From an uncultured Gemmatimonadales bacterium (GTDB lineage Bacteria; Gemmatimonadota; Gemmatimonadetes; Gemmatimonadales; Gemmatimonadaceae), in assembly GCA_963793305.1 (NCBI GenBank), contig CAWBZV010000003.1, positions 480,001 through 544,000 of the forward strand: DNA of 64,000 nucleotides, read 5' to 3'. Below are positions 13,655 through 41,746 of this stretch, piece after piece; the first letter of the stretch is position 1, and every line of letters starts with the position of its first letter. Both the position numbers and the translations under genes were made by a program. A model generated the notes under the pieces. The model was not told the DNA's origin. It saw only the letters and a program-made list of their open reading frames with translations, and searched no databases.

Positions 13655-14983
13655 TCACACGGCGTCGGATACGCTCGTGAACGTGAAGTCGCGTGCCTTG
13701 AGCACGGGCATGGCCGTATCGCCATCGCCGACTCGACGCACCGGCCCGAGTGCGTCGAGGTTGTTGAGCACGAACAATGGCGACTCGTTGAAGCGCAGGT
13801 TCTTGACGGCCCGCGTGATCTCACCGCGCTCAATGAGAAACACTCCGTCGCGGGTGAGCCCGGTGTGCAAGGCTGTTTGTGGGTCCACCTCAACGGTGTA
13901 CCAGAATCGAGTGACAAGCAGGCCACGGTCAGTGCTGCGGATCATGGCCTCACGCGACATCGGACCACCGGCGACCTTAGATGACGTCGCACCGCCTATG
14001 TATAGTCGGCCTTGTCTTTTCGCCCAGTACCGTGAGCTCCACAGTTGCCGCAGGACGCCACGCTCGATCCAGACCTGCCGGCTGACCGGAAACCCATCGC
14101 CATCGAACGGCGCCGCGAGCAGATCCGGATCGGAGGGATCGGAGAACAGCGTTACGCGCGGGTCGACGACTTGCTGACCAACTCTGTTCCCTCCTCCGGG
14201 TTTGGCGAATGGGCTCCGACCTTCGTCGGCCTCGCGCGCACCGAACGACAGCAGGCCAATGATGGTGTTGGTCGCCTCTGGCTCTAAAATGACTGTGTAT
14301 CGCCCGGGCTCGATTGCCGCGGCGTTCCGGGAGCAATGTGCTGTATCGAGAGCACGTGACGCGACGGCGGCTGCATCGAGGTGCGTCCAATCGTGCTCAT
14401 TCGCTGACGCCCAGCCGGAGCCCATGCCATCCACGCTTCGCACGGAGAGGGTGTAGGTCGCGCCGGTTGCGCGCCAGTAGGCGGACAGTCCCGCGCTGTT
14501 GGCGAGCAGCGAGGATGTCGCGTTCGTCTCAATGGATCCGGCGGCCACGAACCCTGAAGACCCCGATTGCCGGGCCGGCTCGAGCGCCGCGAGCGCCACC
14601 TGAGCGCGCTCGCCTGCTCCAACTGCGGCCGTCGACTCAAAGTAGGCGTTGATGTCCTGATGGGTTTGTGGACCGAGCGGCGGCATAGCCTCCGGGTCCT
14701 CGGGCACGAGCTTGGCCAGCGACTCTGCGCGGTGAACGGCGGTCCGGAGGGCATCGTCTGAAAGATCGTTCGTCTGAATGGCAGCGTGCCTCGCGCCGAA
14801 CGACGTGTCGATGACGACGTGGGTGTCACGGACATCGCCGACAGTCGTTAATTCGTTCACCGCGAATCGCGTGTTACCCGTCATGGTGCTGACGATACCG
14901 ACGACTGTGACGTTAGCGGTCGCGAATCGACAGATTCGCGCCGCGATGTCTTCCAACTCCGTGCGCGGCAATGGCGAGCTCAT
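13655..14983 (-). CDS. tldE: TldE/PmbA-family protein
   Basis: EPGRYTVILEP, PFDGDG, TGLTRDGVFLIERG, NLRFNES. Confidence 0.8.
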   Translation of the reverse strand: MSSPLPRTELEDIAARICRFATANVTVVGIVSTMTGNTRFAVNELTTVGDVRDTHVVIDTSFGARHAAIQTNDLSDDALRTAVHRAESLAKLVPEDPEAMPPLGPQTHQDINAYFESTAAVGAGERAQVALAALEPARQSGSSGFVAAGSIETNATSSLLANSAGLSAYWRATGATYTLSVRSVDGMGSGWASANEHDWTHLDAAAVASRALDTAHCSRNAAAIEPGRYTVILEPEATNTIIGLLSFGAREADEGRSPFAKPGGGNRVGQQVVDPRVTLFSDPSDPDLLAAPFDGDGFPVSRQVWIERGVLRQLWSSRYWAKRQGRLYIGGATSSKVAGGPMSREAMIRSTDRGLLVTRFWYTVEVDPQTALHTGLTRDGVFLIERGEITRAVKNLRFNESPLFVLNNLDALGPVRRVGDGDTAMPVLKARDFTFTSVSDAV

Positions 14984-16575
14984 ACGCGCCGTCCGGTGTT
15001 GATGACGTTCACTTGCGAGAACAACGCTGGCACTGAGCCATGACTCACTGCGTTGGTCTGTACCGGCTCTCCTTTGCCGTCGGCGAATGTTCCCCGGAGC
15101 TCATAACTCCGTGGCCCGCCCAGCATCCGGAGCGAGTTCCAGAAGTCGAGCGTGCGAATCTGATAGCTCACATCTCGCAGCATCCCGATGATCTTGCCCC
15201 CCCTGATCTCATAGAAGAGCTGGCCGCCGAACTGCGCGTTGTATCGTTGATGGTCGATCGAGAATGAGCCGTTGCCGATGATCGCGATGCCGTGGTCAGT
15301 CGCGGCGATCAGATCTTCCCACATCAGGTCGTGATCACCCGGCAGGAGCGACACGTTCGGCATCCGCTGGAACTGTATACTTGCCCAGTCTTGCGCGTAG
15401 GAACAGCCGTGCGAGCGTGTGGGCCGTCCCGTTTTGTCGTACCACCACCTCAGCCACTGGGCCTGCTCGCGGGTGGTTTGATAATCGTCCAGTATCCCGT
15501 TCTTGATCAGCAGGAAATCATCCGGCGCGACGCCATCATCGTCGTATCCAATTGTGGCCAAGGCGCCCGGTTGGGAGCGGTCGGCCCGCACGTTCATGAT
15601 CGAGGGCCCATATTGCAGCGCACCGAGCACTTTCTCCGGCGGTGCGACGAAGCTCGTGCCGGCCAGGTTCGCTTCATAACCCAGCGCGCGGTCGAGCTCC
15701 GTCGCGTGGCCGATCGACTCGTGAATGGTGAGCCAGAGATTCGAGGGGTGGAGCACGAGATCGTATCGCTCGATCTCGACCGGCTTCGCACGCAGCTTTG
15801 TCGCGGCCTGCTCGGCCCACTCACGGGCACGGTCGACGAGGCCAAGTTCATCGACGTATTCCCACCCACGTCCCATTGGCGCCAGCGGGATACTAATGGA
15901 TTGAAATGCGGTGCGGTCCGATGAAATCGCGGTGAGGTCCATGGACGGTCCGCTGCGGATTGCGGTCTGGGAGATCACCGAGCCATCAGTCGAGGCGTAG
16001 TGACGCTCTTCTTTGCCGAACCACAGGCTGCTGGACGCGAACTCCACCTTACGAGTTGCGAGCGCAGTCGAGTTGGCCCGCAGTAGCAGGTCGACTTCCT
16101 GTTCGACCGTTACATCGAACGGATCGATGCGGTAGGGGCTAGCCCACCGCGCGCGTTGAGCCGGCGCCGCCGCGAGCTCGACCGGCATATCACGAGCGGC
16201 ACGCGAGGACTTCGACACGGCCACCGCTTGTCGCGCGGCGGCGGTGACGCCGTCAGGCGTCAGCACGCGGGTCGCCGCGAAGCCCCAGGTGCCATCGACC
16301 AGGGCGCGGACGCCGCAGCCGACGCTGTCAGATTCGCCGACTCCCACAACCTGATGCTCTCGGGTTTGGATCCCGTGGCCGCGCAGGCGCTGGATCCGCA
16401 CATCTGCGAACCGCGCTCCAGCCGATTGCGCAGTGTCCACCGCGCGCGCGAGCAACGTCTCGATGGTTGGCGGGTCGTTCATGACTCGTTCCAGCCATCG
16501 GAGCGCACGACCACGACCAGTCGCGACAGCCGCCATCGCCGTGGTGTGGCTCAGAAAGTCGCGGCGGCTGCTCAT
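14980..16575 (-). CDS. tldD: TldD-family metalloprotease with Tat signal
   Basis: SRRDFL signal, HESIGHATELDR, QRMPNVSL; ATGA-coupled to the upstream GT gene. Confidence 0.85.
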   Translation of the reverse strand: MSSRRDFLSHTTAMAAVATGRGRALRWLERVMNDPPTIETLLARAVDTAQSAGARFADVRIQRLRGHGIQTREHQVVGVGESDSVGCGVRALVDGTWGFAATRVLTPDGVTAAARQAVAVSKSSRAARDMPVELAAAPAQRARWASPYRIDPFDVTVEQEVDLLLRANSTALATRKVEFASSSLWFGKEERHYASTDGSVISQTAIRSGPSMDLTAISSDRTAFQSISIPLAPMGRGWEYVDELGLVDRAREWAEQAATKLRAKPVEIERYDLVLHPSNLWLTIHESIGHATELDRALGYEANLAGTSFVAPPEKVLGALQYGPSIMNVRADRSQPGALATIGYDDDGVAPDDFLLIKNGILDDYQTTREQAQWLRWWYDKTGRPTRSHGCSYAQDWASIQFQRMPNVSLLPGDHDLMWEDLIAATDHGIAIIGNGSFSIDHQRYNAQFGGQLFYEIRGGKIIGMLRDVSYQIRTLDFWNSLRMLGGPRSYELRGTFADGKGEPVQTNAVSHGSVPALFSQVNVINTGRRV

Positions 16576-17705
16576 ACGGGTTTCACCGCACCTTCCCACC
16601 AGTGCGCATCGAGAGCTTCTTGTAATTGGTTTTGGACACCCAACCAGTCCCACCGGCTGCGTTGCCGGATGAACCGCATCGTCGGATACCACGGCGTGGT
16701 ATCGGCGAAGCCCCATTGGAAGTCACCGGGAAAGGGGAGAAGAGTCAGCGTTGGCGCACCGAGTGAGCCTGCCAAATGAGCGACAGAGGTGTCGACGGTG
16801 ATCACACCGTCGAGACTCGCGATCAAGTTGGCCGTGTCCGCGAATGACTCGAGTGGCGGGTCCGGCAACCGGAGGAATCGCTTATAGATAAAAGCCTCGT
16901 CCGCCCGTTCGCCGACCTGCAGGCTATAGAATTCAACATCGGGTCGCCAAAAGAACGGCATGAGAACGCGCAAGGACAACGAGCGCTCCATGTGGTCGAA
17001 CCACCCGCTGCACGCCCATGCGAGTCCGAGACGAGCGGGGTTCGTCCGTTCCGGCAACGTCAGCGGCGAGGGGGCTGACCGGCGCACGAAGGGCGGCAGC
17101 GAACCAACCAGTCGGGGCAGGAGGCTGGCGTTCAGCGCGCGATCAAAGTGGGCGTCGGTCCTGGTGCGATCCCACGCCTGCATGCCCGACAGGTGACCGA
17201 AGTTGTACTCAAAAAATCGTATCAAGTTCGCGTCGACGGCCCAGAAGATCGGCGCCGATACTCTATCGTGCAGCGCTTCGGCGAAGCGCAGCCAGCTAAT
17301 TGTTGCGCCGTAGTCAGTGAGCTCCGCGACGAGGAGCGTCTTTCCGGAGAGGTCTTCGACCCCATCCCACCAACGATCCACACCCGGAGGGAGAAACTCG
17401 GGATTGGTCGGCCATGACACGTCTTGCCAACCGTTCCAGTCGCCGAGCCGCTTCAGCGCGTCGCGTCGGTCAGCGGTGCTTTTGTCCGAGTCGTGCGGTC
17501 GAGTCAAAGCGAGAGCTACACCCCAGCGCCAGAGAGGGATGGAACCACCATCCAAGCACGCGTTGGCGAGCCGGTAGAGATGTACGGGGTTCTCGCGCTC
17601 GCGGCTGGCATGCGCGACGTATAAGTCGATCCGATGCGTCTCCGGGAGGTCCCGAAAGGCGGCGCGGCAGGCCTCGAAGTAAAAGGCGACGTTGTTCGTG
17701 GTCAT
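16572..17705 (-). CDS. TPR/GT9-like glycosyltransferase paralog 2
   Basis: WDGVEDLSGKTLL, VDTSVAHLAGSLG, TPWYPTMRFIRQ; GD motif degenerate (TDYGA). Confidence 0.75.
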   Translation of the reverse strand: MTTNNVAFYFEACRAAFRDLPETHRIDLYVAHASRERENPVHLYRLANACLDGGSIPLWRWGVALALTRPHDSDKSTADRRDALKRLGDWNGWQDVSWPTNPEFLPPGVDRWWDGVEDLSGKTLLVAELTDYGATISWLRFAEALHDRVSAPIFWAVDANLIRFFEYNFGHLSGMQAWDRTRTDAHFDRALNASLLPRLVGSLPPFVRRSAPSPLTLPERTNPARLGLAWACSGWFDHMERSLSLRVLMPFFWRPDVEFYSLQVGERADEAFIYKRFLRLPDPPLESFADTANLIASLDGVITVDTSVAHLAGSLGAPTLTLLPFPGDFQWGFADTTPWYPTMRFIRQRSRWDWLGVQNQLQEALDAHWWEGAVKPV

Positions 17706-17774: not shown

Positions 17775-19650
17775 TCACCGATACCCAACCGCCTGCAGCT
17801 CGAACAGCTCAGCATACAAGCCGTTCTGCTTCAGGAGGTCTTGATGCCCGCCGTCCTCGACGACGGAGCCGTGTTGGAGAACCACGATGCGGTCGGCCAT
17901 GCGGATCGTCGAAAATCGATGCGAGATGAGCATGGCCATCCGGCCGGCCATCAACTCGGAAAAGCGCAGAAAGACCTCGTACTCGGCCCGAGCGTCCAGC
18001 GCCGCGGTCGGTTCGTCGAGAATAAGCAGGTCGGCAGCCCGCAGGTACGCACGCGCCAAGGCAACTTTCTGCCATTCCCCGCCGGACAGATCGACGCCGT
18101 CATCGAACCGTTTCCCGAGCATCTGGCGATAGCCATGCGGAAAGCGAGGAATCAGAGTCGATGCGAGCGAATCTTCGGCGGCCGCGATGATCGACGGGAC
18201 GATAGTCGCGGCCGGCTCGGTTCCCGGTTCGTGGCCCGCCACAGCGTCGAGGTACGACCGCGTCTCATCGATTCGACCGACGCCGATATTTTCGTCGAGC
18301 CGCATGTCGTAGCGGACGAAATCTTGGAAGATCACGCCGATCGCTTGGCGAACGGACCCCAGGTCGTACTCACGGAGATCCAAGCCGTCGAGCAGAGATG
18401 CGGCCTTCAGTCGGGTCGTAGAGGCGAGCGATGAGCTTGGCGATCGTCGTCTTGCCAGCTCCATTCTCACCGACAAGCGCGAGGCGCTCGGCCCGGCGCA
18501 ACTCGAAGTTGATGCCGCGGACGGCCCAACGATCGGTCCCAGGATATCGGAATCCGACACTCTCGAACACGAACCCATGTCGGATGGGTGACGGAACCAA
18601 CGGTGCGCGCGGCTTGCTGACGATCGTCGGGCGGATCTCGAAAAACAGGAAGAGATCGCGCAGGTAGAGCGACTGCTCGTACACATCGCGCGCCTGGTTC
18701 ACCGAATTCTGAATGATCGATCGCACCTGCATGAAGGCGCCAGCTAGGAAGGTCATCGACCCGAGCGTAACCGCGCCGCTCATGGTCGCGATCAGGATCA
18801 TGGCGTAGCCGCCGTAATACCCCAGGGTTCCGAGGAGGGCCAAGCTGGCGCCGGCGCGAGCGCGTCGCACCGCGAGTTTTCTATTTTCATTATAGTAGCG
18901 CTGGGCAAGCGTCCGGAATCGGTCTCGGAGCCAGATGCCGAGTCCGAAGAGCTGCACCTCTTTCGCCGTTCGGTCGCACGCCCCGACGTACCGTATGTAA
19001 TCGAGCTCGCGACGCTGCGGTGTCCAACTGTAGGCAAGCGAGTAACTGAGCCCCGCGAAGTGCGCCTCGCTCACCAGGCCCGGGATCACGGCCACGAGCA
19101 GGATCACGAGCAACCACGGGTTGAACGCGAGCATAGCCGCCGCAAAGCCGACGAGGGTGAGCCAATCTTGCCCCATCGACAACAATTGGCCAATGAGATT
19201 GATGCGGGACGTCGATTGTTGGCGTGCGCGCTCGAGCAAGTCGTAGAACGTCGGATCTTCGAACTGCGTGAGGTCGAGCGTCGCGGCGTGCGCCATGATG
19301 CGCTCGCTGACGCGGTTGACGAAGAGGTCACCCAGGAGCGAGTCGACCAGCGCCGACAAGCGACCAACGACCTCTGCGGTGGCGACGATCGTCAGTTCGA
19401 TCGCAAACAGTGTCCACATCCGGTGCCAATCCGGATTGTGCCCTCGACCGGCCGCGACGACATCGATGATCAACTTGCCGACCCACAGCGTCGCGAGCGG
19501 GAGCGCGGCCCGAATGACGCGGAAACCACCCATCGTGAGGGCGAGCGCCGGGCTGGTAGACCAAACCAATCTCAGTAAGCGCGGGATGTATCGCAGCCCC
19601 GCTAGTCGCCGACGGAATCCGGACGGTAGGCCGTTGGCGCGGGTCGACAT
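17775..19650 (-). CDS. ABC exporter, fused permease-ATPase (frameshift at about 18397)
   Basis: TM domain; GENGAGKTT, LSGGEWQK, LILDEPT, SHRFST. Confidence 0.9.
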
Positions 19651-19775: not shown

Positions 19776-20126
19776 ATGAGCGAAGAACACGGTAATGGTG
19801 CGATGCTATCTGGCGACCATCTCGTCACGATCCCGGAGACGGTCGCGTCGATGCAGGTTGGTGAGGACACGCTCGTCCATGATATGATCACGCAGCGGTT
19901 GCACCGACTCGATGCGGTCGGAACGCGGATCTGGGAGCTGATCGATGCTGGCCACACGGTCGAGGTCATCGTGCAGACGCTCGCCAAGGAGTACCAGTTG
20001 CCGGACGACATGCCACCATCACAGTTACATGACGATGTGTTGGCAATAGTGTCCGACCTGCATCGCCTCGGCTTGGTCCTCAGCGATCACGCCGGCTCGA
20101 GGATCTTGAAATCTACCAACTGCTGA
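19776..20126 (+). CDS. PqqD-family RRE (stand-alone)
   Basis: RLDAVGTRIWELI...IVQTLAKEY...DVLAIVSDLHRLGLV. Confidence 0.8.
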   Translation: MSEEHGNGAMLSGDHLVTIPETVASMQVGEDTLVHDMITQRLHRLDAVGTRIWELIDAGHTVEVIVQTLAKEYQLPDDMPPSQLHDDVLAIVSDLHRLGLVLSDHAGSRILKSTNC

Positions 20127-21171
20127 ACGGTCCAGTTGGAAATCCGTGTACCGGAACGCTGCGCCTGCGCCTGGATATCGGCGGTGGCACGTTGTCCATC
20201 AAAAAGTGGCAGAATGTCAACGATACCCGCCAGCACCACGAGTCGATCAGACGAGCCTAGGCTTTGAAGGTGAGCCACGCTGTCTTTGCCGTTGGTGACC
20301 CAGAACCGTCGGACGCGTAGCCGATCAGGTACCGAGTCAGACACCAACTCGTCGTACGTCTCGCGGCTAAGGCGCGCGGCAAGGCGAACCCGCGGTCCAC
20401 CAATGGCGAGAACATCCGGCCACGACAACACAGATACCAAGCGTGCCGCGCTCGAGTAAAACTCGCGCTCCCGGCCGTTCCATGTATCTCCCCAGGCTTG
20501 TCGATAGAGCGCCGGATCACTCTCATTGTCAATGTCTGCCGCGGTGACGCGCCCGGGCCGTTTGGCGTTGTCGCGCGATGCCAGGAGGTACTTCAGTGCG
20601 GCGCCGCCAATGTCCAGGTGCTCAATGCACCAGAGCTCGATGAGATGACTCGATCTCACTCAGCAAAGACAGGAGACGGCGCCAGAACTCCCGTCCGACG
20701 GATCCCCGCACGACCTGACAGTAATACGTCGAGCAGATAGCGTTTCGGTATCGCCAGAATGCCGCACAGCCCACCAGCTTCGATGTAGTGCGGGCACCTC
20801 AGCCCGCGAGCGACGCCAAAGGCGTGGTCGGCTTGAGCATAGAGCAATGCATATGTTGCTGGCGCATCCAATCCGAACGGCGTGACTCCCACCTTGGCGG
20901 CGATGCGCGCCTCGACCGAGTGACGACCGATGTCTGTTTCGGGCGATGTGTCGTTGAGTATGCCCCCGACGGCGAAGTTCGGGAGGTGGGGGAAAAATGA
21001 GCAGCACTTCACATCGGGTCGGAAGGGTGCCACGCCGGTCTCTGGGGAAGGTCGGCACATGGTGCAGTCCGAACACGTCGCGCGCGATTCGTCAGGAATT
21101 GGACCACCAAACAGGTCCTGCAACCATCTCGCGGTGAGTGGCGGCAACTGCACTGACGCTGGGGAACGCAT
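20087..21171 (-). CDS. YkgJ-like Cys-cluster (Zn/Fe-binding) protein, frameshifted
   Basis: CSDCTMC..KCC, RCPHY..LCGI, RNAICSTYYC spread over three frames. Confidence 0.6.
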
Positions 21172-21306
21172 GGCGGAATGAAGTCTATCGAGTCTGCCCT
21201 CCGCATCACGAGACTCACGGAGCGGATCTCAGACTCGCCTGCGATCGCACAATCTCGCCCATGCCGCTCGTGGGGTGCTCCCGTGAACTGGCCTAGCATT
21301 TCGCCC

Positions 21307-22455
21307 ATGGGCGAGCTAGCGACCTTTGCGGACTCTTGTGAGGTATTCTTTGCCCAGGCGCAGCTGGGAGAGCGAGCCTCGGGGCGGCTAAGCGCTATTC
21401 GTTGCGATCCAAACAATCCGATACTCATCCATGAGCTCGCCGGCGCGGCCTGGCTCAATGGGCGACCAGATCTGTGGTTGCAGGGCACGGCACTGGCTCT
21501 GCAATTGCCGCACGAGACACCTCAATCACTATTCGTACGCGCCTGCGCAAAACTACGGCTTGGTAATTGGTCTGGATGGCGAGATTACGAAGCGCGGCAT
21601 ATCGGGCCCGGCACCGTGACGTCGGAGTCGGCATATGCACGGGCCTTGGCCTGGACAGCTGTGACGTGTGAGAGTGTCGCCGATCTTCGCGACAAGACAC
21701 TGCTCGTGATTGAAGAGGGCGGATTCGGCGACAGCATTCAATCGATGTGTTTTGTTCCTGCGCTCGTCGCCGCCGCCGAGCGCGTCATCCTGATGGTCAA
21801 GCCGGAGTTGGTCACGTTTTTCGAGCACAATTTCGGAAGCGTGGCCGTGATCGCATCGTCCGAGCATCCCCGCTATGATGGCTTCGATGAGTACATCTGG
21901 AGCTCATCGGTACCGACATTGTTCGAGGAGATTCCGCCATTCGAACGGCTGACCGCTCCCAACCCTCGGCGACGATCTCGTGCCGGGACTGAGCCGTCGC
22001 GCGTGGGGATCTGTTGGGCGGCTCGGGTGTGTGAGCCACATGTGGCCATTCGCCGCTCGATTACCGCGCTCGAAGTGCTGAAGCCACTCTTCGCGCGTAC
22101 CGACATCGTTTGGCAGAGTCTTCAGATCGGTCCGCGCGCCAGCGACATAGCGACGTATCCAGCTGTGCAGGGCGCGGATCCGTCGATAACGACGTTCGCC
22201 GACCTGGCGAATCTGGTATCGGAATTGGATTGCGTCGTGAGCGTCGACACAGCGGTTGCCCATCTCGCGGGAAGGCTCGGTGTCCCGATCTATCTATTGC
22301 TTCCCTACGCAGCAGATTGGCAATGGGGGCTCCATGACACCACGCCATGGTACCCATCGATGCACCTTGTTCGCCAGCAAAGACTCGGCGACTGGGAGAG
22401 CGCGATCGACCTGCTGTTGCGAGAGCTCAGCGGCCGAGGGGTCGCCGTTGGCTGA
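21307..22455 (+). CDS. TPR/GT9-like glycosyltransferase paralog 3
   Basis: EEGGFGDSIQ, VSVDTAVAHLAGRLG, TPWYPSMHLVRQ. Confidence 0.8.
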   Translation: MGELATFADSCEVFFAQAQLGERASGRLSAIRCDPNNPILIHELAGAAWLNGRPDLWLQGTALALQLPHETPQSLFVRACAKLRLGNWSGWRDYEARHIGPGTVTSESAYARALAWTAVTCESVADLRDKTLLVIEEGGFGDSIQSMCFVPALVAAAERVILMVKPELVTFFEHNFGSVAVIASSEHPRYDGFDEYIWSSSVPTLFEEIPPFERLTAPNPRRRSRAGTEPSRVGICWAARVCEPHVAIRRSITALEVLKPLFARTDIVWQSLQIGPRASDIATYPAVQGADPSITTFADLANLVSELDCVVSVDTAVAHLAGRLGVPIYLLLPYAADWQWGLHDTTPWYPSMHLVRQQRLGDWESAIDLLLRELSGRGVAVG

Positions 22456-30099: not shown

Positions 30100-30479
30100 C
30101 ACTACCGAGTGTGATGCACTGTTTCGGACGAATGCTGGCCATAAAAGTGTCGCTCAAAACTCGCGGCTTGGGCGCGACGCTCTCGCGGTACTGCCAATCG
30201 CCGACGGACGTTCGTCGCGACGACTCGATCAGCGATGACCTCGTCGACCAAGTGGCGTTTCAGGTCGCCGGCGCCGCCGCGCTGTTTCCGGGGCGCGCCC
30301 TCTGTCTCGAGCAAACGCTCGTACTGCATGGAGAGTTGCTGCGCATCGGTGTCGACTCTCGGATCCGGTTCGCTGTCACGCCGTATCCATTCAAAGCGCA
30401 CGCGTGGATCGAAGTGCGAGGTCGTCCGATCAATGAGAATCTGCATTGGCTCAGCCAGATGACACTTCTCGAGACTTAA
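30096..30479 (+). CDS. Lasso peptide B2 leader peptidase (transglutaminase-like)
   Basis: ALCLEQTL (catalytic Cys) and PFKAHAWIE (His) motifs. Confidence 0.9.
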   Translation: MTLPSVMHCFGRMLAIKVSLKTRGLGATLSRYCQSPTDVRRDDSISDDLVDQVAFQVAGAAALFPGRALCLEQTLVLHGELLRIGVDSRIRFAVTPYPFKAHAWIEVRGRPINENLHWLSQMTLLET

Positions 30480-30484
30480 TCACC

Positions 30485-32488: not shown

Positions 32489-32620
32489 ATGGCCAAGACC
32501 TATCGCACACCGAGTGTTGTGACACTTGGTAACGCCGAAGTTCTGACGACCGGCTCCCCGAAGGGGAACCACGCCGAGGTGAGGACTGGCTCGACCTCGA
32601 TCACCATGCTGGACCTCTAA
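32489..32620 (+). CDS. Lasso precursor A1: MAKTYRTPSVVTLGNAEVLTT|GSPKGNHAEVRTGSTSITMLDL
   Basis: AGGAG RBS; canonical leader; core G1..E9. Confidence 0.92.
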   Translation: MAKTYRTPSVVTLGNAEVLTTGSPKGNHAEVRTGSTSITMLDL

Positions 32621-32647: not shown

Positions 32648-32782
32648 ATGACCAAGACCTATCGCACGCCCAGTGTCGTGACACTTGGTAACGCCGAAGT
32701 GTTGACGACCGGCGCACCGAAGCCGTGGAATCACGCCGAGGTGAAGACTGGCTCGACCTCGATCACGTTGCTCGACCTCTAA
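32648..32782 (+). CDS. Lasso precursor A2: MTKTYRTPSVVTLGNAEVLTT|GAPKPWNHAEVKTGSTSITLLDL
   Basis: GGAG RBS; manual translation; leader near-identical to A1; Glu at core position 10. Confidence 0.92.
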   Translation: MTKTYRTPSVVTLGNAEVLTTGAPKPWNHAEVKTGSTSITLLDL

Positions 32783-32899: not shown

Positions 32900-33028
32900 T
32901 TGACCTTTCGCCCGCCGAGCGCCGTGACACTTGGTAGCGCCGCAGTACTGACGACCGGCATCAACAAGCCGTGGAACGCGAACGAGCCACACGTCGGCTC
33001 GACCTCGATCACCTTGCTCGACCTCTAA
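32900..33028 (+). CDS. Lasso precursor A3 (TTG start, possibly silent): (M)TFRPPSAVTLGSAAVLTT|GINKPWNANEPHVGSTSITLLDL
   Basis: Manual translation; in-frame stop at 32882 upstream; no RBS; Tyr-17 replaced by Phe. Confidence 0.7.
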   Translation: MTFRPPSAVTLGSAAVLTTGINKPWNANEPHVGSTSITLLDL

Positions 33029-33036: not shown

Positions 33037-33169
33037 GTGACCAAGATCTATCGCACACCGCGCGTCATCGCGCTTGGACCCGCCGATCAGCTGACGACTG
33101 GTCTCGTATGCTCGTCCAATAGATACGAGACCATCGGCTCGAACGTCCATCGCGTTGCTCGATCTCTGA
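33037..33169 (+). CDS. Lasso precursor A4 (1-nt insertion at 33142/3): MTKIYRTPRVIALGPADQLTT|GLVCSSNRYETIGSTSIALLDL
   Basis: GTG start; deleting one A from tcgAacgtcc restores STSIALLDL-TGA, ending flush against the convergent peptidase stop. Confidence 0.78.
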
Positions 33170-35314
33170 CTACCGCTTCTCCGCCTCTCCCGCGCGTAAG
33201 TAGGTGTCGAACCACGCCAAGCGTCGTCGCCACACATCGCGAACGTTCGCGGGAGATGTGATGGCGTGACCCTCTCCCCAGTACCGCACGAACTCGACAC
33301 GTTTCCCCTGGCGAGCGAGCGACGAGAACATCTCCTCCCCTTGTTGGATCGAAACGAAATCCATATCGCCCTGAACGATCATCACTGGCGTATCGATCCG
33401 ATCGACGTAGTTGATGGGATTGTTCCTCGCATAACGCAATGCATTCTCCCATGGCGGCCCACCCATTCGAGTCTGGCCTGATTCTCCACCGGGCAGGCCA
33501 CCAATCCAATCTCCAGTGGCGGCGTCTCGGTAACGGCGAAAGGTGGAGAAAGCACCGAATTCCGATATGAGGTCCGACGGAGCACACTCGGCGATGGCGG
33601 CTTTGAACCGATGGGTGAATTCGATGATCCCATACGTGCTATACCCGCCATAGCTACACCCTTCGATTCCAATCCGATCAGGATCGGCGTATCCCATCTC
33701 GATCGTCTTATCCACCGCGGGTAATACGCCCTTCGGCAGATCGATGAAATTGTCACCGGGCTGTGTCCTGTCGCCGACGAACGGCATGCTCGGATACAGG
33801 ACAAGATAGCCAGCACCCGTCCAGAGTGCGTCCTCCAGACTCGGGTTGGTATCCGCCGCGCTTTGTACGCTTCCGTCGTATACGATCGTCACCATGGGAT
33901 ACCGTCGGCCGGCGACGTATCCAACTGGCAGCTGGAGCGTTGCCGTTAACGAATCGCCCTCCATTCCAAGATATCGGAGCGCGATCTTTCGGCCACGATC
34001 GATTTGCTCGGCGCCAGCATTGAGCGTGAGCACGGTATCGCGCTCGTGCAGCACCAAGTCAACTCGACCATCCGGTCGTGCCTGAACTGCAAGCGGTAGC
34101 GGCTTCCGACCTTCGATCGCGGACGGCGTCGCCTCGATCGGCGTTAATACGGCGTCTCCGTGCGCGCTGATCCGATACCACCGGTCGTCCTTCGGCACAT
34201 TGCGCTGCACGTGAACCACTACGGATCGTCCATTGGTTGCCCACACGGGCCGCGCGGGCCCAAAGTTGAATATCTGACTTTCCATGCCGCCGACAACGGC
34301 GTCGAGTGAGCCGGTTGAATCGACCCCCACCCAACTCGGTGACGTGGCACGGTCGAGCGGGATAATCGCTATGCGAAACCCGGGAATGTATTCTCCATAG
34401 AGTGCGGACGTACCCTTCCACTCGGATATCGGCACGGGGACGACAATCGCAAGGGTATGACCGTCCGGAGACACGGCGCCGACGGACGGCCAGTAGTCCG
34501 GAACGTGCCGGTAGTCACCGATGGGAATGGGTGCGAGCGCGGTGCTCGTGTGCGACCTGACGTTGACCAGGGTGAGCTTCAAAGGCGCAAACGATAGCGG
34601 CGGCGCGCCCGGTCCCGCGTCGAGTACGCTGGCAGTCGATACCGTGCCACGTTCCTGCAGTGGCCAGGCGCGTTCGGTGATCCGCTGGGGTTCGGTCGTT
34701 TCGTGATACCACTCGCCGGTCGCGCCAGCAGGAAGCGCGGCGAAAATCAATGTGCTGTCGCTCAGCCACCGGCAGTGGGCGAACGTTGCGCCCTGGACGC
34801 CATCGTACAGCCCACGCTCGTATTGCGCCAACTGCAGCCTGACCTGCTGATCCACGCCTTGTTGCGTCGACAGTTCGAGCCGATCGCGCTGTCGGTCCCA
34901 GACATAGAGGTGAACGTTCTCCCCTCCCTTGCTGGAAAGCATCGCCAGTCGGCGGCCATCGGGCGACCAAACCGGATCCCAGTACCCACTGGCGTCGGAT
35001 TTACCTTGCGTGAGATTCCGGCGCACCTGTCCGGTCGAGGAGAATACCCACACGTCGGACCGCTCGTGCTCCATGCCGGTGTATCGCTCTCCTGGTGTCG
35101 CGGGTCGATCGATCGTGACCGCCACCCAAGCGCTATCTGGGGACGCGGTGACCTGTCGCGGAGCGGGAATCAGCGTGAGCAGATCATTGACCACTGCCGG
35201 TCGCTTGTTCGCGTGAGTGACATTGACAGAACGTGCGACGTGGTTTACTTGCGCTCGAGCCCAGCCCAAGACGAAGAATTGCAATGCGCACGCGAGGGTC
35301 ACCAATTTAAGCAT
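33170..35314 (-). CDS. Secreted S9-family peptidase, putative lasso isopeptidase
   Basis: Signal peptide; WSPDG propeller repeats; GCSYGG, VQGDMDFV, YWGEGH catalytic triad. Confidence 0.85.
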   Translation of the reverse strand: MLKLVTLACALQFFVLGWARAQVNHVARSVNVTHANKRPAVVNDLLTLIPAPRQVTASPDSAWVAVTIDRPATPGERYTGMEHERSDVWVFSSTGQVRRNLTQGKSDASGYWDPVWSPDGRRLAMLSSKGGENVHLYVWDRQRDRLELSTQQGVDQQVRLQLAQYERGLYDGVQGATFAHCRWLSDSTLIFAALPAGATGEWYHETTEPQRITERAWPLQERGTVSTASVLDAGPGAPPLSFAPLKLTLVNVRSHTSTALAPIPIGDYRHVPDYWPSVGAVSPDGHTLAIVVPVPISEWKGTSALYGEYIPGFRIAIIPLDRATSPSWVGVDSTGSLDAVVGGMESQIFNFGPARPVWATNGRSVVVHVQRNVPKDDRWYRISAHGDAVLTPIEATPSAIEGRKPLPLAVQARPDGRVDLVLHERDTVLTLNAGAEQIDRGRKIALRYLGMEGDSLTATLQLPVGYVAGRRYPMVTIVYDGSVQSAADTNPSLEDALWTGAGYLVLYPSMPFVGDRTQPGDNFIDLPKGVLPAVDKTIEMGYADPDRIGIEGCSYGGYSTYGIIEFTHRFKAAIAECAPSDLISEFGAFSTFRRYRDAATGDWIGGLPGGESGQTRMGGPPWENALRYARNNPINYVDRIDTPVMIVQGDMDFVSIQQGEEMFSSLARQGKRVEFVRYWGEGHAITSPANVRDVWRRRLAWFDTYLRAGEAEKR

Positions 35315-36593
35315 TTGAGTCAATGCACCCGTGGTAGTTCGGATTATACTGATCGCCAGCGACGGGAAAGACGACGCTCGAGCCGTACATGGCCGGGCCA
35401 CCCCGATAGGGTCCCATGGGGAACACCGAGTTCGCGCTCAGGCCGTACTGACGAACGAGACGACGCAAATCACCCTGGCGATGGCCCGTTCCGAACAACC
35501 AAAAAGCTCGCTCGCGGAACATGACGGACAGTTGCATGCTCGCCGACGCCGTGGTCGTCGAATCGGACGTGAGTGTGTCCATGGCCGGTGTTATCGCATT
35601 CTGCCGAAGCGAGTTCAAGATTCCCGACCACGTAGAGACTTGGCCGCCCTTGAGCGCCGCCTCCGCTATCAACAGCTGGGCTTCAATGCCGCTCGCCATG
35701 GTCAATGACGAGGCGCCGGTTGTCACCAACCCATCGGCGTACGTCGTGGTGCCAGAGCCCGAAACGGCGAGAATAGGGAGTCGTGGGTCGCCCGCGCTGA
35801 CGAACGGCAACCCATTCTCACCTTCGCGATCGGACACCGAAACGATCGGGTTCGCGATCGTATTGTTGTAGATCGCGTTGATGTCGGTCGCGCCATCCAA
35901 CTCGGCCGTGTAGACAAAGCCGAGCGACACGTTGGCGACGGCGGCGGCGGCGGCGGTGAAATCGCCGCTATCCGCATAGGCTCGCCCACGCAGAACGGCA
36001 ATCAAGGCGGCGATGGAATCACTGCCAGTCGTGGAGGTCGCCGCGGAATCCAGATCCTCGAGCGCCTGGGTGAGTAATTGCTGGCGGTTGAACACGGGAC
36101 CGTAGCTCGGCGTCGACCCGTCGACGATCGCGAGTGACACTCCAGAGCAGAGGTTCTCGGCAAACTCGAGCTCCACGGCCGCGCTCAGCGCGCGCAATTC
36201 GCCAATGTGCCACACTGGCTCTGGGGCATACTGGCGCAGCGTGGCAATAGCCGCGAGCGCGTTGACTCGCCCACTGCTCAAGTTACCGAACGGGAACCCC
36301 CCGGGATTGCCGAGCGATAAGACCCGCTGATCTTCAGGGAGATTGCCGACTTCTGATTGGGTCGCGACGGTGAACTCGTCAGCCAAAAGGCCGGTGTGGA
36401 ACGACTGGGACGAGAACGCGTTGAAGAGTGTACCCAGCGCACCCGCCCTGAGAGCGGCGGCGCCCGACGCGTTTTGAAGACCACCCTGTGTGATGACCGA
36501 GGGGTCTTGTACGCGGGTTAGGTCGCAAGCGGTAGTCGAGACGAGCAATGCCGGTAGAAAAGCCGCCGCGATTGCGCGCACGAATCGAATCAT
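35307..36593 (-). CDS. SusD/RagB-like lipoprotein
   Basis: Lipobox TTAC, GLLADE, EAQLLIAEA, FRERAFWLFGTGHRQGDLRR. Confidence 0.8.
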   Translation of the reverse strand: MIRFVRAIAAAFLPALLVSTTACDLTRVQDPSVITQGGLQNASGAAALRAGALGTLFNAFSSQSFHTGLLADEFTVATQSEVGNLPEDQRVLSLGNPGGFPFGNLSSGRVNALAAIATLRQYAPEPVWHIGELRALSAAVELEFAENLCSGVSLAIVDGSTPSYGPVFNRQQLLTQALEDLDSAATSTTGSDSIAALIAVLRGRAYADSGDFTAAAAAVANVSLGFVYTAELDGATDINAIYNNTIANPIVSVSDREGENGLPFVSAGDPRLPILAVSGSGTTTYADGLVTTGASSLTMASGIEAQLLIAEAALKGGQVSTWSGILNSLRQNAITPAMDTLTSDSTTTASASMQLSVMFRERAFWLFGTGHRQGDLRRLVRQYGLSANSVFPMGPYRGGPAMYGSSVVFPVAGDQYNPNYHGCIDSNA

Positions 36594-36615
36594 GGCAGGA
36601 CACCTCACGAGTGAG

Positions 36616-39600
36616 TCAGAAGCTGAGATTGATGCGTGCGAGCCAATACTGGGCGGGCGGCAACCCTCCACCTGCGAAGTAGGTGTTGTTGACCGGCCCG
36701 GATGGGCTAGGTGCCGTTTCGGGATCGCCGCCGTTGAAGTGACTCCAAATGGCGATGTTGCGGGCCGACAAGGTCACGCTCATCGATCGCGCCCTGAACG
36801 CTCGCGCCACCGCGTCCGGAGCCGCATACGTGAGAGAGAGCTCGCGGAACCGAATAAATGCTCCGTCCGAGATGACACCGCGATTGGTAAACGCGGTGCC
36901 ATTGTACGCGACACACACTGCTTGGTCGGCGAGCGACGCCTGCCTGCTCACGGTCGCGAACGCGGTGCCCAGGGCGCATTGTGCAGCGAGCGCTTGGTTC
37001 GGAATGACGAATTGCCCACGATAGTCGAAGAGCGCGCCCACCCGAACGCGATTGCCGAATAGCCCGACATGCGTTCCAGCCGTGACCTGAACCGGCGGTA
37101 TGGTGGGCCCATAAAAGCGCTCACCGCTGGCGATCGTGAGTTCATTCGGCTCGATAATTCCATTCCCATTCGCGTCGCGGTACGTGTACGGCTGGGCGAA
37201 CATCGAATAGATGGGGTATCCGGCCACGATACTTGGGGCGCCACCCTGGCCATAGATCGGCTGAAAGTATGGGCCCAACGTCACCACTTGATTGTGGTTG
37301 ACCGACCCATTGAGGCTCACGTCCCAGGACAGCGGGCGCGTATCCAGCATGACCGCGGAGAGCTGCGCCTCGTATCCCCAATTGAGGACGGTCCCCACAT
37401 TCTCCAGAATGGAGGCCACGCTGCCCAGCGACGATCCGAGCGGGGCATTGTACAAGGCGTTGACGTTCCGCTTCCGGTAGTACGTGAATTCCATGTGCAC
37501 GCGGCTATCCGCCATGTCGAGATCGGCGCCCGCCTCGAGCTCCTTCTGTCGCTCGGGTTGCACGTGAGGGTTCGCGAGTGATGACAACGTCATTCCGGGT
37601 TGCAGCGCGCCGTCAATCGTAACGGGCACGGACGAATACGTCGTCAGCACTTGGCCGGGTTGCGTCCCGGACTCGCCGTATGCTGCCCGGAGTCGAAGGA
37701 GGCTGAGCCAGCTCGGATGTGGGAAGAAATGCTCGCGAGAGATCAGCCACGATACGCTGCCCTTGGGATAGGCGGCCGACCTGAAATCGTGGCCGAAGTC
37801 ATTCGCGCCGTCAACGCGAACCGCGCCGGTCAAGAACAACCGGTCATCCCACGCGAACTCCTCCTCGGCATACACCCCAGCCACCACGCCCTCGCTGTCG
37901 ACCTGCGCGCCCTGCGATACGCCGCCGCCAACAAAGCTCGAACCCGTGGTCAAGTTCGACGCCGTTGCGGTCGCGGTCTTCGTCTCCGCGCGATGATATT
38001 GTGCGCCGACTGATGTGTTGGACACCAAGGACGAAAACAGCGGCGCCCGCGCCGTGCCGCCAACGTCAACGCTGTAAATGTTCGTTGTTCCCCGAGCATC
38101 GATGATGTTTCCGCCATTGACGAAGGTGATCGGAGCGGCGGCGGGGGGAATGAACTGGGAGAAGCCGCTTGCCGACTCGTCAATGCCCGCGGTGAGGCGT
38201 CCGGTAAACCATGAGGTCGGCAGCCAATGCGCTGTGCCCGACCCAGTGAAATGCTGGTTGGTCTCATTCTCGATGGATCCGAAGAATGAGCCTGGGGTCG
38301 CGCCGAAAAGCCAATCGGCGGACGGATCCCGATATCCCACACCACCGGCCCAATTCTGAATCGCGCCGCTATAGGGGATGGATCCGGATTCCGATAGGTA
38401 GCTGCCCGAGACGGAGACATCGCCACTGCGTCCGAGAGGCGCAGAGAGATTCACGCGCCCGTCGTATTTGCTTATGCCATTCGGGTGGCGCACGTTGCCG
38501 GCGCCGGCGGCTGGACCGACCAACGAGTCCAGTGTGTGTTGGTCGTATGCGTCATCCTTTAGATACCCGATCTCGGACGTGTAATTGCCGGATACGAAGT
38601 ACCGAATGTTGGAACCACCGCCAGAGACCTGCACACCGACGTCGGCTCGATTGCCAGTTCCAAGCGGAGTCAATCCGGGATCACGCAGCGGATTGAACTT
38701 GGTGATGCTGTCCTGGGTGCATGCCTGGGCGGCAATCGCGGCCAGCGTGCAGGAGTTGGTCACTTGACCAGCACTTTGACCCCAGCCGCTGTAGTTGTAC
38801 CCGAATTGATCCGGATCGATGGTCAACGCACCGCCTTCAACATGCATGCTCCACCGCGGTGCGCCCGAGACTCCTTGCTTGGTCGTGACGACAATAACGC
38901 CATTCGCCGCGTCCGTCCCGTACAGCGTAGCCGCCGACGGGCCTTTAACGATCTCGATGGATTGAATCTCATCCATTGATAAGTCATTGAACCGACCACT
39001 CGATTCTTCGTATCCGGCAGGGCCCGCGGTTGAGTTCGCGACGCGAACGCCATCGATGTACAACAGCGGCTGCACTGATAGCGTCAGGGATCCAGGCCCG
39101 CGGATGTAGATGTACGGAGATGCACCGGTCAGACCGCCGGGATTGATGACTTGCACACCCGGTGCGCGGGCGTTGATGATATCGCTCAACGACGTAACCG
39201 GAGTGTTTGGAACAATCGAATCAGCGTTGATCGTGGCAATCGTATTTCCGATCGTGCTCAGTCGCTGATTGCCCGTTACGGTTGTTACCACCTGATCGAG
39301 TACCGTGGGCACCGGCACCAGCGCGATGTCTCGCGTGTACACACCCGCCGATGGCGTTACCTGCACCGTGGTCACAGCGTATCCGAGTCGTCTGACGACC
39401 AGCGTGTACGTACCAGCCGTCAGGCCGTTGATTGTATATGCGCCGTCGGGTCCAGTGATGGCCCCCTTTCCGGCCACGCGGACCGTCGCATCGGTCACCG
39501 GTTTGTGGGTGGACGAATCCGAGATCGTGCCACGCACGACGACGGTGTCTCTCGATTGCGACCGAGCGGTGAGACGGTCGCGAGCAACGAGCGTTGCCTG

Positions 39601-39979
39601 ACCGTACGGAGCTATCTCGACATCGACATCCGCGTCGAGCAAGATCTGTGTAAGCGCCGCGGCGACGGTAATGTCCGATGCGTTCGAGCCTCACCGTGGC
39701 GCCGGCAGGGAGGATCGACGGCTTGTAGGTGAACCGCAGTGAGGTCTGTTCTTGGATCGCCGTCAACGCCTCGGGAATCGTGGCGTTGTGCAGACGAAGC
39801 ACAAGCCGCTCTCGCAGCGCCGCAAAACTTCCAGCTTCGGCACGTTCAATGTGGGTGCCGACAATCGCGTAGAATGCCGGTTCTCGTGAGGCCAGGTGTA
39901 GTGGCTGGGGCCCTTGCGCGCCCGCGCCGCTACAGAGAATGACTCCGACACTGATGCCGCAGACGACGCCGCGCATCAT
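36616..39979 (-). CDS. SusC/RagA-like TonB-dependent transporter with N-terminal signalling domain (frameshift at about 39690)
   Basis: IEIVKGPSAATLYGTDAANGVIVVTTK, LRLRAAYGESG, terminal Phe. Confidence 0.9.
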
Positions 39980-39982: not shown

Positions 39983-40990
39983 TTACCTCCTGGAGACAAG
40001 AGTCACAGTTTGCCCTGAGCGGACGACGCTCGCATCGAGCGCCCGAGCGATGACATCGAGGGCTACGTCCGCTGGGATATCGCTAATCGTCACCGTCAGT
40101 CGATCGTCAGCGAGTTTCGCGCTGCCGAGATGCACATCGATGTCGTACCAACGGTCGAGCTCAGGGATGACCTCGCGCATCGGCGCGTTCACGAACGTGA
40201 GATTCCCCTGCGACCAGGCCAGGTATCGGTCGACCGCCACGCCTTGTGTGACTCGAGCGGCACCGGTCGAGTCGACGACACCAAGGGCGCCCCGCGTCAG
40301 AATGACGGGCTTGGTGCCCTGTATCGATACCGACCCGTCCGCGACGACGACGCGCACGGTTTTGTCATAGGCCCGCACATCGAACTGCGTGCCGATGTCC
40401 TCAACGGTCGTGCCGCTGGGAGCAGTGACACGAAACGGTTGCGTGGGATCATGCGTCACGCTGAACACCGCCTCGCCGCTGAGATAGATGTGCCGCCCCA
40501 CCGCAGCAACGCGGATTTCCGTTCCCGGGGCGAGAGTCACCCGTGTGCCGTCGCGCAATTCCACCGTCGCGCGCTCGCCGCGTGCCGTGACGTAGGTGGC
40601 GCGAATCGCGGGCGCCTCTGCGCGAGTGGTCGGCGACGGTCGCAGCGCATGCCACGAGGCGTATGCCGTCCCAGCGATGAGAAGCACCGCTGCCGCCCAA
40701 CCCACGAGCGGGCTCACTCCGCGCGATCTCGGCGTTGGTGGGATCAACGTTAGCGGTTCGTGACGGCGATCGACCCCGAGTCGCCCAGCCAAAGCGCGCC
40801 AGGCCTGATCGGTGTCCGCGGGCGCGTTTGCTTGGGACGAGGCGCGTCGTGAGGAGCGCATGACTTCGACAATCGCCGTCAACGTCGGAGATGCTTGGAT
40901 GCGTCGTCGCATCATCTCACGCTCGCCCGGCGTACCCTCGCCGCTGACATATCGATCGAGCGCTACCCAATCGATGTCGCCGTCCCTCAT
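39983..40990 (-). CDS. FecR-family anti-sigma factor
   Basis: LRDGTRVTLAPGT, LSGEAVFSVTHD, DIGTQFDV, LDRWYDI. Confidence 0.9.
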   Translation of the reverse strand: MRDGDIDWVALDRYVSGEGTPGEREMMRRRIQASPTLTAIVEVMRSSRRASSQANAPADTDQAWRALAGRLGVDRRHEPLTLIPPTPRSRGVSPLVGWAAAVLLIAGTAYASWHALRPSPTTRAEAPAIRATYVTARGERATVELRDGTRVTLAPGTEIRVAAVGRHIYLSGEAVFSVTHDPTQPFRVTAPSGTTVEDIGTQFDVRAYDKTVRVVVADGSVSIQGTKPVILTRGALGVVDSTGAARVTQGVAVDRYLAWSQGNLTFVNAPMREVIPELDRWYDIDVHLGSAKLADDRLTVTISDIPADVALDVIARALDASVVRSGQTVTLVSRR

Positions 40991-41161
40991 CAGGCGATCG
41001 CCCAGGGTGTCATGGCACAGCTACACGCGCCTCGCTCAAGTCCCGACCGCTGTAGCACTGGTGGTGCAGAAGTGTTGCCAAACACCAGTTGCTTTTTTCG
41101 CGGACGCGAAGTCGCACGGTCTTGACAGGCTGACGCGAATACGTCACCATGGGCGACACAC

Positions 41162-41746
41162 ATGTCCGCCCCACGCCAGCTAGTAGGATCTGACCAGTCC
41201 GAGAATGAACAAGTCGCCCGCATTCGGGCGGGTGACGTGCTGGCGTTCGAATCACTCTTCAGGGCGTACTATCCCGACCTCCGTACCTTCGTCGACACAT
41301 ACGTCGATCGCGCAACAAGCGAGGAAGTGATCCAGGAGCTCTTTCTCGCGCTGTGGCGGCGGCGGGAAGCGTGGATTCCGGCAGGTGGCGTCCGCGCGTA
41401 TTTGTTCGCGGCAGCACGCAATCAGGCGCTCAACGCGATTCGTCAGCGAAAAAGCGCTTCACGCGTTGTGGAAGAATGTGCCGCGGATGGATCCATCCCC
41501 GGGACGAATCAATCCGATCGGAATCCCGCGCAGCAGCTCTCGACGAACGAGATCGAGTCCGCCTGTCGCGAAGCGATCCACCATCTGCCAGAGTCAAATC
41601 GTCTGGTGATGATGCTCCGCTGGGACTACGGAATGAGCCACGCCGAGATCGCGTTCGTCCTCGGCACGTCCATTAAAGGAGTAGAGGCGGAACTGGGCCG
41701 CGGCCTCAAGACACTCGGCACTCGACTGAGCTGGATTCGCGCGTAG
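41162..41746 (+). CDS. ECF sigma-70 factor (FecI-like)
   Basis: AFESLFRAYY, EEVIQELFLALW, region-4 GMSHAEIA; divergent from fecR. Confidence 0.9.
   Translation: MSAPRQLVGSDQSENEQVARIRAGDVLAFESLFRAYYPDLRTFVDTYVDRATSEEVIQELFLALWRRREAWIPAGGVRAYLFAAARNQALNAIRQRKSASRVVEECAADGSIPGTNQSDRNPAQQLSTNEIESACREAIHHLPESNRLVMMLRWDYGMSHAEIAFVLGTSIKGVEAELGRGLKTLGTRLSWIRA

Follow-up and report, generated by a model that had tools for sequence, protein, structure and literature searches.

A 64-kb stretch of the genome of an uncultured Gemmatimonadales bacterium (hereafter the window; its genome is G000, its congeners are G001-G005, and the sequence stretches or contigs compared with it are numbered L0xx) encodes a lasso peptide locus interspersed with an array of glycosyltransferases (GTs). 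Our results indicate a known kind of lasso cluster joined to a tailoring family which, in the literature searched, is unreported for peptides that are ribosomally synthesized and then modified post-translationally (RiPPs), and we regard this combination as real and unusual. We estimate at roughly 0.6 the probability that GTs of this clade O-glycosylate lasso precursors under the guidance of RiPP recognition elements (RREs).

Linkage of the glycosyltransferases to RREs and lasso genes

Profile searches found an RRE (B1), a B2 protease and an asparagine-synthetase-like cyclase (C) together at 29788-32299, confirming the B1-B2-C genes proposed in the original prediction, which was made from the sequence alone. 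At three other loci, a GT of the same clade lies inside the core operon between the RRE and B2, beside the sole RRE found there. The gene order is ABC-RRE-GT-B2-C-precursors-S9-SusC-FecR-ECF in G001, ABC-GT-RRE-GT-B2-C followed by the same S9/SusC/FecR/ECF block in G005, and ABC-RRE-GT-B2 on the metagenome contig L034. In our tree, these operon GTs fall in one subclade with GT8 of the window, the GT that had been described as coupled to an RRE and whose start is indeed overlapped by the stop of RRE2. Because the cyclase of the window is only 34-35% identical to those of G001 and G005 and the leaders differ, this link spans two diverged lasso systems. Across nine distinct loci with genomic context (of the seven metagenome loci, two duplicate genome loci and enter the count a single time), an RRE lies within 100 nt of the GT in six and B2 or C within 1 kb in four. 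Orthologues of gene X, RRE1, the ABC exporter or TldD were also found on three contigs of 2-8 kb (L032, L035 and L036). The expectation that the GT clade accompanies lasso B/C genes elsewhere was thus borne out within one genus (G001, G005 and L034). As controls, we searched 80 viral and 41 canonical loci of the parent GT family with flanks of 5 kb and mostly 1.5 kb, and none presented lasso or RRE matches. The slot next to the permease held no lasso or GT gene in G003 and G002 (the G002 contig measures 9 kb).

Structural modelling supports the binding of the GT to the RRE. A three-chain model of RRE, precursor and GT from G005 scored 0.81, against 0.00 for the best of three controls, including 0.00 when the RRE was replaced. 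The mark applied to such models is reached by 116 of 157 solved pairs and 2 of 215 mismatched pairs, counts that are only roughly valid for a three-chain job. The model runs share at least 38% of their contacts, and the partner pLDDT is at least 83. The modelled contact joins the sheet of the RRE (residues 29-52) to GT residues 154-177 and 278-282; we take this face of the RRE to be shared with B2, an arrangement compatible with a hand-over. In a post hoc comparison, 10 of the 17 modelled interface residues recur in the second GT of G005, which belongs to another subclade and has an overall identity of 36%; sharing averages 26% over the 37 clade members outside the GT8 subclade.

Fold, paralogues and precursors

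In the modelled structure of GT7 (pLDDT 89.9), a helical N-domain is joined to a GT-B body. Among 48,161 chains, the best fold match is the Veillonella GT9 protein 3tov (Z 17.7, rmsd 3.2, 243 residues aligned), followed by WaaF (Z 16.5), TibC (16.4) and WaaC (16.2), whereas other GT-B families score about 10 or less; Foldseek agrees. The C-lobe carries a D-T-x-x-x-H signature, to which sequence-level alignment with WaaC and WaaF is limited, and the GT-B fold is closest to these two enzymes. When range 130-379 of the model is aligned to WaaC 1-320, Asp142 falls on WaaC Asp13, assuming no gap. We take Asp13 to be the catalytic residue of WaaC and, on this basis, call the clade residue the predicted catalytic Asp; it is kept in six of the eight GTs of the array and in nearly all clade members. 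No cysteine was found among the invariant or near-invariant columns of the clade, hence no four-cysteine iron finger, and none of the eight GTs gave a Pfam match to a polysaccharide deacetylase/GT2 architecture. With lipopolysaccharide (LPS) heptosyltransferases as the closest solved folds and heptose pathway genes beside one GT array (L030), it is conceivable that the GTs modify the cell envelope, i.e., the LPS core or another glycan, like WaaC/WaaF, for instance as self-protection against the peptide. We consider this highly improbable: the N-domain with its tetratricopeptide repeats (TPRs) points to protein acceptors, separate WaaC/WaaF-like genes exist in the genome, and the coupling to RREs would be left unexplained.

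With E values up to 1e-10, the parent TPR-GT9 family comprises 35,298 representatives, and it presents the same motifs; this profile search of 1.84 billion representatives was dominated by long TPR-GT9 proteins with several modules and left the limits of the clade undefined. The lasso-linked GTs are distinct, with 17 matches at E <1e-107 followed by a gap to 4e-56, and 42 clade members measure 336-415 aa. The tree places 46 short and 62 canonical sequences on opposite sides of a branch with a support of 99, with one long-branch intruder, and the support is 100 after removing the intruder row and half of the canonical rows (two fragments were dropped from both GT trees). The dN/dS ratio is 0.09-0.25 in eight GT comparisons (a set without the G001-G005 pair), while lasso C gives 0.25 and three further control genes give 0.05-0.14, which indicates that the clade is under purifying selection. 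These searches located the clade in a single Gemmatimonadaceae genus: it is present in three of the five congeners, no other genome scored better than 1e-70 among 400 sampled from the family, of which one (G161) is unpublished and carries no claim by itself, and none of 400 genomes sampled from the phylum reached 1e-75, with four candidates scored per genome. Named records and NCBI labels assign clade proteins to Gemmatimonadaceae. The viral scan returned only distant relatives (28-38%) and the plasmid search only canonical TPR-GT9 proteins. Such distant relatives are encoded by 454 viral stretches (L082-L161), the family being widespread in phages, and one canonical long TPR-GT9 gene outside the lasso-linked clade lies elsewhere in the genome (L002:9141-10589; G000:C2 ~17-18 kb).

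The eight paralogous TPR/GT9-like genes of the original prediction are present, but a ninth GT at 2128 had been overlooked (92-95% identity to an intact G004 orthologue, dN/dS 0.09-0.14). GT1-GT8 are 307-425 aa long and 29-44% identical to each other over full-length alignments. PF01075 exceeds its gathering score of 22 bits in three of the eight, over only 36-61 residues, falls below it in three and finds no match in two. No Pfam TPR family matched any single GT of the window; a profile of the clade matches consensus TPR proteins over positions 13-87, which corresponds to about two repeats. Judging from their sequences, roughly five or six of the eight paralogues seem catalytically intact, and it is unlikely that all eight are active: the predicted catalytic Asp is missing from GT1 and GT5, although their orthologues retain it (those of GT1 at 69-71% identity), GT6 is truncated and misses its last helix, and GT3 has deletions in the C-lobe. 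Alternatively, only one or two paralogues (the GT8 type and perhaps the GT7 type) glycosylate, adding one or two sugars, and the others are inactive, act as scaffolds or have other substrates. We consider this possible, at clearly less than even odds; it is compatible with RRE-guided glycosylation and competes only with the idea of a product multi-glycosylated by eight enzymes. In its favor, G001 and L034 have one GT and G005 has two, and clade members outside the GT8 subclade conserve the modelled RRE interface poorly. It accounts less well for the close orthologues of GT1, GT3, GT6, GT7 and GT8 elsewhere (62-76%), for the Asp kept by the GT1 orthologues at a dN/dS of ~0.2, and for the extra RREs and the precursor inside the array. 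The proposal that the paralogues decorate the peptides therefore draws support from the linkage and the GT-RRE model, but not for all eight.

Five homologous precursors had been announced and five match our profile, but only A1, A2 and A5 are clean open reading frames, each with purine-rich sequence upstream; A3 requires a TTG start and A4 is frameshifted. A six-frame search of the whole genome with a profile built from four precursors found exactly these five, all at the window locus (E 2e-29 to 3e-5; next match E 1.4). A5 indeed sits between two GT genes: its start overlaps the stop of GT6 (ATGA) and its end lies 9 nt upstream of GT7. The YxxP motif of lasso precursor leaders (PMC12710340) occurs in A1, A2, A4 and A5, and FxxP in A3. 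The tail is rich in Ser/Thr and closes with LDL in A1-A3 and A5, with GSTSIT as a conserved motif in A1-A3. Taking Gly as core residue 1 places Glu at position 9 in A1, 8 in A5 and 10 in A2-A4, and cleavage one residue later would place it at 8-9 in A1-A4; in lasso rings, the Asp/Glu is found at core position 7-9 (PMC9266682).

The three RREs described earlier correspond to three PqqD-type RREs within 13655..41746, but two further elements had escaped notice: RRE4 (3315-3608), outside this range, and an RRE-like domain in gene X. RRE4 has orthologues in G001 (with no adjoining GT) and in G004, and RRE1, RRE2 and RRE4 are all distinct from B1. By its sequence features, gene X is a candidate for a second tailoring enzyme. 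One of the GT-less lasso clusters of G005 contains an intact homologue (L075:15208-16371), and its family (458 matches at E up to 1e-20) has invariant cysteines, with weak matches to PF03692 (CxxCxxCC) in 11 of 68 members. The top fold matches of residues 305-387 are mostly RRE-type domains (MccB, TigE, MibB, PbtF and TbiB1), at Z 5.0-7.1, below the reliable level of the tool. Foldseek gave no match for gene X at E up to 0.001, and the fold search barely covered the N-terminal part.

The GT9-type fold and the presence of ADP-heptose genes both elsewhere in G000 and beside the L030 array allow the sugar donor to be narrowed. The six clade GTs of L030 adjoin hldC and hldD, each of which scores above its cut-off, together with genes for a HAD hydrolase and an hldA-like kinase. 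This hldD is only 39% identical to that of G000, which suggests a separate copy; G000 encodes hldD, hldC, hldA-like and gmhA-like genes elsewhere in its genome. Given glycosylation, ADP-heptose would be the likeliest donor, at about even odds; overall, heptose as the sugar is doubtful. We hold with similar reserve the view that these GTs constitute a family of RRE-dependent heptosyltransferases diverting ADP-heptose from LPS onto ribosomal peptides, which would yield heptosylated and, here, multiply heptosylated lasso peptides; in this view, gene X would add a second, RRE-fused iron-sulfur or zinc chemistry. The L030 array is also flanked by an rbsB homologue (64%), and an apparent insertion-sequence remnant, read from the sequence, lies between its SusC gene and the GTs (L030:2490-3915).

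Weighing the proposed RRE-guided glycosylation

Several observations weigh against RRE-guided glycosylation of the lasso precursors. All linked genomes belong to one genus and share one chromosomal slot, and they are therefore not independent. Since 11 of the 14 lasso B2 loci of the genus lack a clade GT, the G002 sister cluster included, the GT is optional. The peptide in the three-chain model has few confident contacts, at residues 13-16 only, and the complex was modelled with the proteins of G005, not those of the window. Ser/Thr make up 62 of 237 core residues in 12 GT-linked cores and 57 of 215 in nine GT-less cores, i.e., no difference (the leader/core boundary follows our own rule, and A4 and one G001 candidate were left out); Ser/Thr-rich cores were consequently rejected as evidence for glycosylation, being equally common in GT-less clusters. 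The ADP-heptose link rests on one locus (L030), and the hld genes of G000 are explained by LPS, WaaC/WaaF-like genes being present. In the literature searched, no protein of the parent TPR-GT9 family turned out to have been characterised biochemically. Finally, the 15.6 kb of L030 around its six clade GTs contain neither an RRE or a precursor nor B2 or C, although lasso genes may lie beyond its SusC, and a GT-RRE pair in G004 stands without B2 or C in 20 kb.

These last two loci suggest another possibility, namely that the GTs and extra RREs work on something other than the lasso precursors, such as a non-lasso RRE-bound peptide or TPR-recognised surface proteins (as with FlmG and flagellin), and merely share the slot. 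The GT-RRE pair lies between regulators both in G004 and in the window (2128-3608), and the difference of RRE1, RRE2 and RRE4 from B1 is consistent with this scenario. Co-located RiPP pathways with separate RREs, as well as RiPP clusters in GT-rich loci, have been described, so that neighbouring RREs can serve separate pathways (PMC13381572). We nevertheless consider this scenario unlikely. In G001, G005 and L034, the GT lies inside the core operon by the sole RRE found there, and the model docks the GT on that very RRE; in addition, no further peptide close to the GT loci matched the lasso-precursor profile, although an unrelated one would escape this profile.

Building on the gene content, clade, fold and operon position observed here, we infer the following steps for RRE-guided glycosylation. 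Starting from a lasso cluster of the isopeptidase/TonB type, the genus would have added optional tailoring by a protein-directed TPR-GT9 glycosyltransferase, an enzyme that would have kept only about two TPRs and would dock on the RRE. The RRE would bind the YxxP leader and present the linear precursor to the GT, and the latter would transfer a sugar from a nucleotide donor to Ser/Thr hydroxyls, most likely in the conserved tail (GSTSIT in A1-A3), through the Asp equivalent to Asp13 of WaaC. B2 and C would then cut and cyclise the peptide, the ABC exporter would secrete it, and SusCD and the S9 peptidase would re-import and open the product. The minimal form is RRE-GT-B2-C, as in G001 and L034. 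The window has an old, expanded set with extra RREs and, for this reason, its paralogues probably differ in site, precursor or chain position.

Given that the ABC exporter, gene X, GT8, A4 and the ninth GT are frameshifted, it could also be argued that the array arose by a duplication now in decay and that the locus does not function. However, three of the seven flanking genes compared (rbsC, M56 and ROK) are also split in the window and intact in G001, and one near-identical public contig (depth 2.8) lacks 1 nt inside gene X; at the breaks of the ABC exporter, GT8 and A4, public contigs returned no match. Since these flanking genes are broken too, the breaks are probably assembly errors; for gene X the public contig speaks directly, and for the others we infer the same. 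The orthologues are moreover intact and under purifying selection, and the paralogues, at 29-44% identity, are old. Decay was thus rejected as an explanation of the frameshifts, and we give hardly any credence to a non-functional locus.

Gene neighborhood and comparison with known systems

The coordinates of the locus are given in Table 1. The ABC exporter (frameshifted) and the S9 peptidase/TonB uptake operon of the original prediction were confirmed by profiles; the S9 peptidase, the TonB-dependent transporter and the sigma/anti-sigma pair are all present in the window, and the same block occurs in G001 and G005. TldD/E genes are present as well, but G001 and G005 have none in the corresponding slot, and we therefore rejected them as a core part of the cluster. 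G000 has two further TldD/E pairs outside the locus, and a TldD gene also adjoins the ABC gene in L035. Promoter and terminator scans gave a signal below chance.

Table 1. Positions in the window of the lasso, glycosyltransferase, RRE and accessory genes
Feature	Coordinates	Strand	Remarks
Ninth clade GT (GT9th)	2128..3271	+	Frameshifted; between two AraC-type regulators; tblastn, PF01075
RRE4, stand-alone PqqD-type	3315..3608	+	PF05402 E 2e-7; directly after ninth GT
TldE/PmbA-like protease subunit	13655..14983	-	PF19289
TldD-like protease	14980..16572	-	Start overlaps GT1 stop
GT1	16572..17705	-	PF01075 23.8 bits; predicted catalytic Asp replaced by Ala
ATP-binding cassette (ABC) exporter, permease + ATPase	17775..19650	-	Frameshifted in this assembly; orthologues intact in L032, L035
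RRE1	19776..20126	+	PF05402; groups with RRE2, apart from B1
Gene X, Cys-rich (CxxCxxCC-like)	20087..21171	-	C-terminal RRE-like domain; frameshifted here
GT2	21178..22455	+	Start may be 21307
GT3	22448..23461	+	Internal deletions in C-lobe; orthologue P0016 at 65%
GT4	23524..24648	+	PF01075 26.6 bits
GT5	24648..25787	+	PF01075 24.9 bits; predicted catalytic Asp replaced by Asn
GT6	25774..26697	+	Short N-terminus; without last helix that orthologue P0013 has
Precursor A5	26694..26822	+	Precursor profile match; weak NF033522 match
GT7	26832..27992	+	Modelled: helical TPR-like N-domain + GT-B
GT8	27965..29105	-	Frameshift near 3' end; orthologue P0002 at 76-85%
RRE2	29102..29449	-	Stop overlaps GT8 start
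Lasso B1 (RRE)	29788..30099	+	PF05402, NF033536; start codon uncertain
Lasso B2 leader peptidase	30096..30479	+	NF033537 53.1 bits, cut-off 33
Lasso cyclase C	30506..32299	+	PF00733, PF13537; best NCBIfam NF033535 173.6 bits, below cut-off 525
Precursor A1	32489..32620	+	Clean reading frame, precursor profile match
Precursor A2	32648..32782	+	Clean reading frame, precursor profile match
Precursor A3	32900..33028	+	TTG start required, short leader, no clear ribosome-binding site
Precursor A4	33037..33169	+	GTG start, frameshift in tail
S9 peptidase, candidate lasso isopeptidase	33170..35401	-	PF00326; best match NF033523, 86 bits vs cut-off 400
SusD-like lipoprotein	35307..36671	-	Weak PF07980
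SusC/RagA TonB-dependent transporter	36616..39642	-	TIGR04056 above cut-off
FecR anti-sigma factor	39983..40990	-	PF04773
Extracytoplasmic function (ECF) sigma factor	41162..41746	+	Profile searches

Upstream of the locus, three AraC-type regulators surround the ninth GT and RRE4 (window 1278-5652); the same block is found with a GT in G004 and without one in G001. It is followed by a sugar-use block (window 5400-13651) with rbsC/rbsB-like ABC parts, a GH38 alpha-mannosidase, an M56 peptidase, a ROK kinase and an APC permease. This block flanks the lasso slot in G000 and G001, and its ROK and permease genes are also found in G005. Downstream (window 41987-48515), a TPR protein and a response regulator are encoded, as are two convergent kinase-like genes, of which one has a BTAD domain.

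Other lasso clusters were observed in the genus. The second cluster of G000 (L003:14306-14880; C3 ~766 kb) has S9, SusCD and two precursors with long Ser/Thr-rich tails and no GT; it is possible that these precursors are a substrate in trans. The third (L004:9692-12260; G000:C5 ~655 kb) is conserved across the genus and has a single short precursor. Ser/Thr kinases occur in GT-less lasso clusters of congeners (L075:7106-16371, which also encodes a DUF6065 protein and gene X, and L069:11310-12209), whose lasso peptides are candidates for phosphorylation or some other modification. TrbI/TrbL-like conjugation genes, as read from the translations, adjoin both clusters. In the GT-lasso cluster of G005, a 403-aa gene with a weak methyltransferase match precedes the ABC gene (L028:5199-6410).

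Glycosylated lasso peptides are known: davasins are made with IgtG, an enzyme of family GT2, and pseudomycoidins with PsmN (PMC11912497). The davasin system resembles the one proposed here in the Ser O-glycosylation of a lasso peptide by a GT encoded in the cluster. IgtG, however, is one deacetylase/GT2 protein with a preference for glucose and a requirement for Ca2+, and its acceptor is the mature lasso (PMC11912497), whereas the window encodes a GT-B/GT9-fold family in up to eight copies, predicted to act through an RRE. PsmN also yields a glycosylated lasso peptide, but this nucleotidyltransferase-like enzyme adds a hexose to phosphoserine and needs a kinase (PMC11912497, PMC9266682), and no kinase was seen in the window cluster. 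The bacterial autotransporter heptosyltransferases (BAHTs) TibC and AAH have a GT-B fold near WaaC, a catalytic Asp, protein Ser acceptors and an ADP-heptose donor (PMC4358343), a likeness that, for the window, consists of the fold (TibC Z 16.4) and the predicted Asp. They differ in their iron-finger cysteines, dodecameric assembly and autotransporter substrate (PMC4358343), whereas our clade has no conserved Cys and possesses a TPR N-domain and RREs. FlmG, compared by description only, shares the TPR plus GT-B layout, with a TPR that binds the acceptor protein and an O-linked sugar, but it is a 596-aa protein with a long TPR region, Pse/Leg donors and flagellin as acceptor (PMC7591256, bioRxiv 2022.03.25.485807); the GTs of the window have about two repeats. 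The canonical TPR-GT9 proteins ([quoted passage not shown]) constitute the parent family and carry the same motifs; they are longer, with many TPRs and often several modules, whereas the lasso-linked group is short and forms its own branch.

The remainder of the cluster is similar to isopeptidase-type lasso clusters (astexin, sphingopyxin I and rubrinodin), which possess an S9 peptidase, a TonB-dependent transporter and a sigma/anti-sigma pair and, for rubrinodin, an ABC exporter (PMC9266682). In contrast to these, the window adds a SusC/SusD-type transporter, the GT array, extra RREs, gene X and TldD/E. RRE fusions to family GT2 domains (PF00535) have been listed (PMC12710340), and lasso clusters were reported in 29 metagenome-assembled genomes of Gemmatimonadota in a study whose available part does not mention a GT link (PMC11316326). 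No GT9-type RiPP enzyme was found in the literature searched, which covered few subscription papers; supplementary tables, such as those of PMC12710340, could list these proteins.

Glycosylated RiPPs are rare, and the lasso cases described in the literature searched use a family GT2 enzyme or a nucleotidyltransferase (PMC11912497). The five-gene operon of the relatives suits direct testing in E. coli K-12, which is itself an ADP-heptose producer. If RRE-guided glycosylation is correct, a GT9-fold, RRE-guided enzyme would provide a new route to glycosylated, perhaps heptosylated, peptides that could be redirected by leader swapping. It would also give the TPR-GT9 family (>35,000 representatives) its first substrate. 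Should these enzymes prove to be heptosyltransferases, they would represent the first GT9-type tailoring enzyme of RiPPs, the first RRE-docking glycosyltransferase outside family GT2 and the first assigned function in the TPR-GT9 family.

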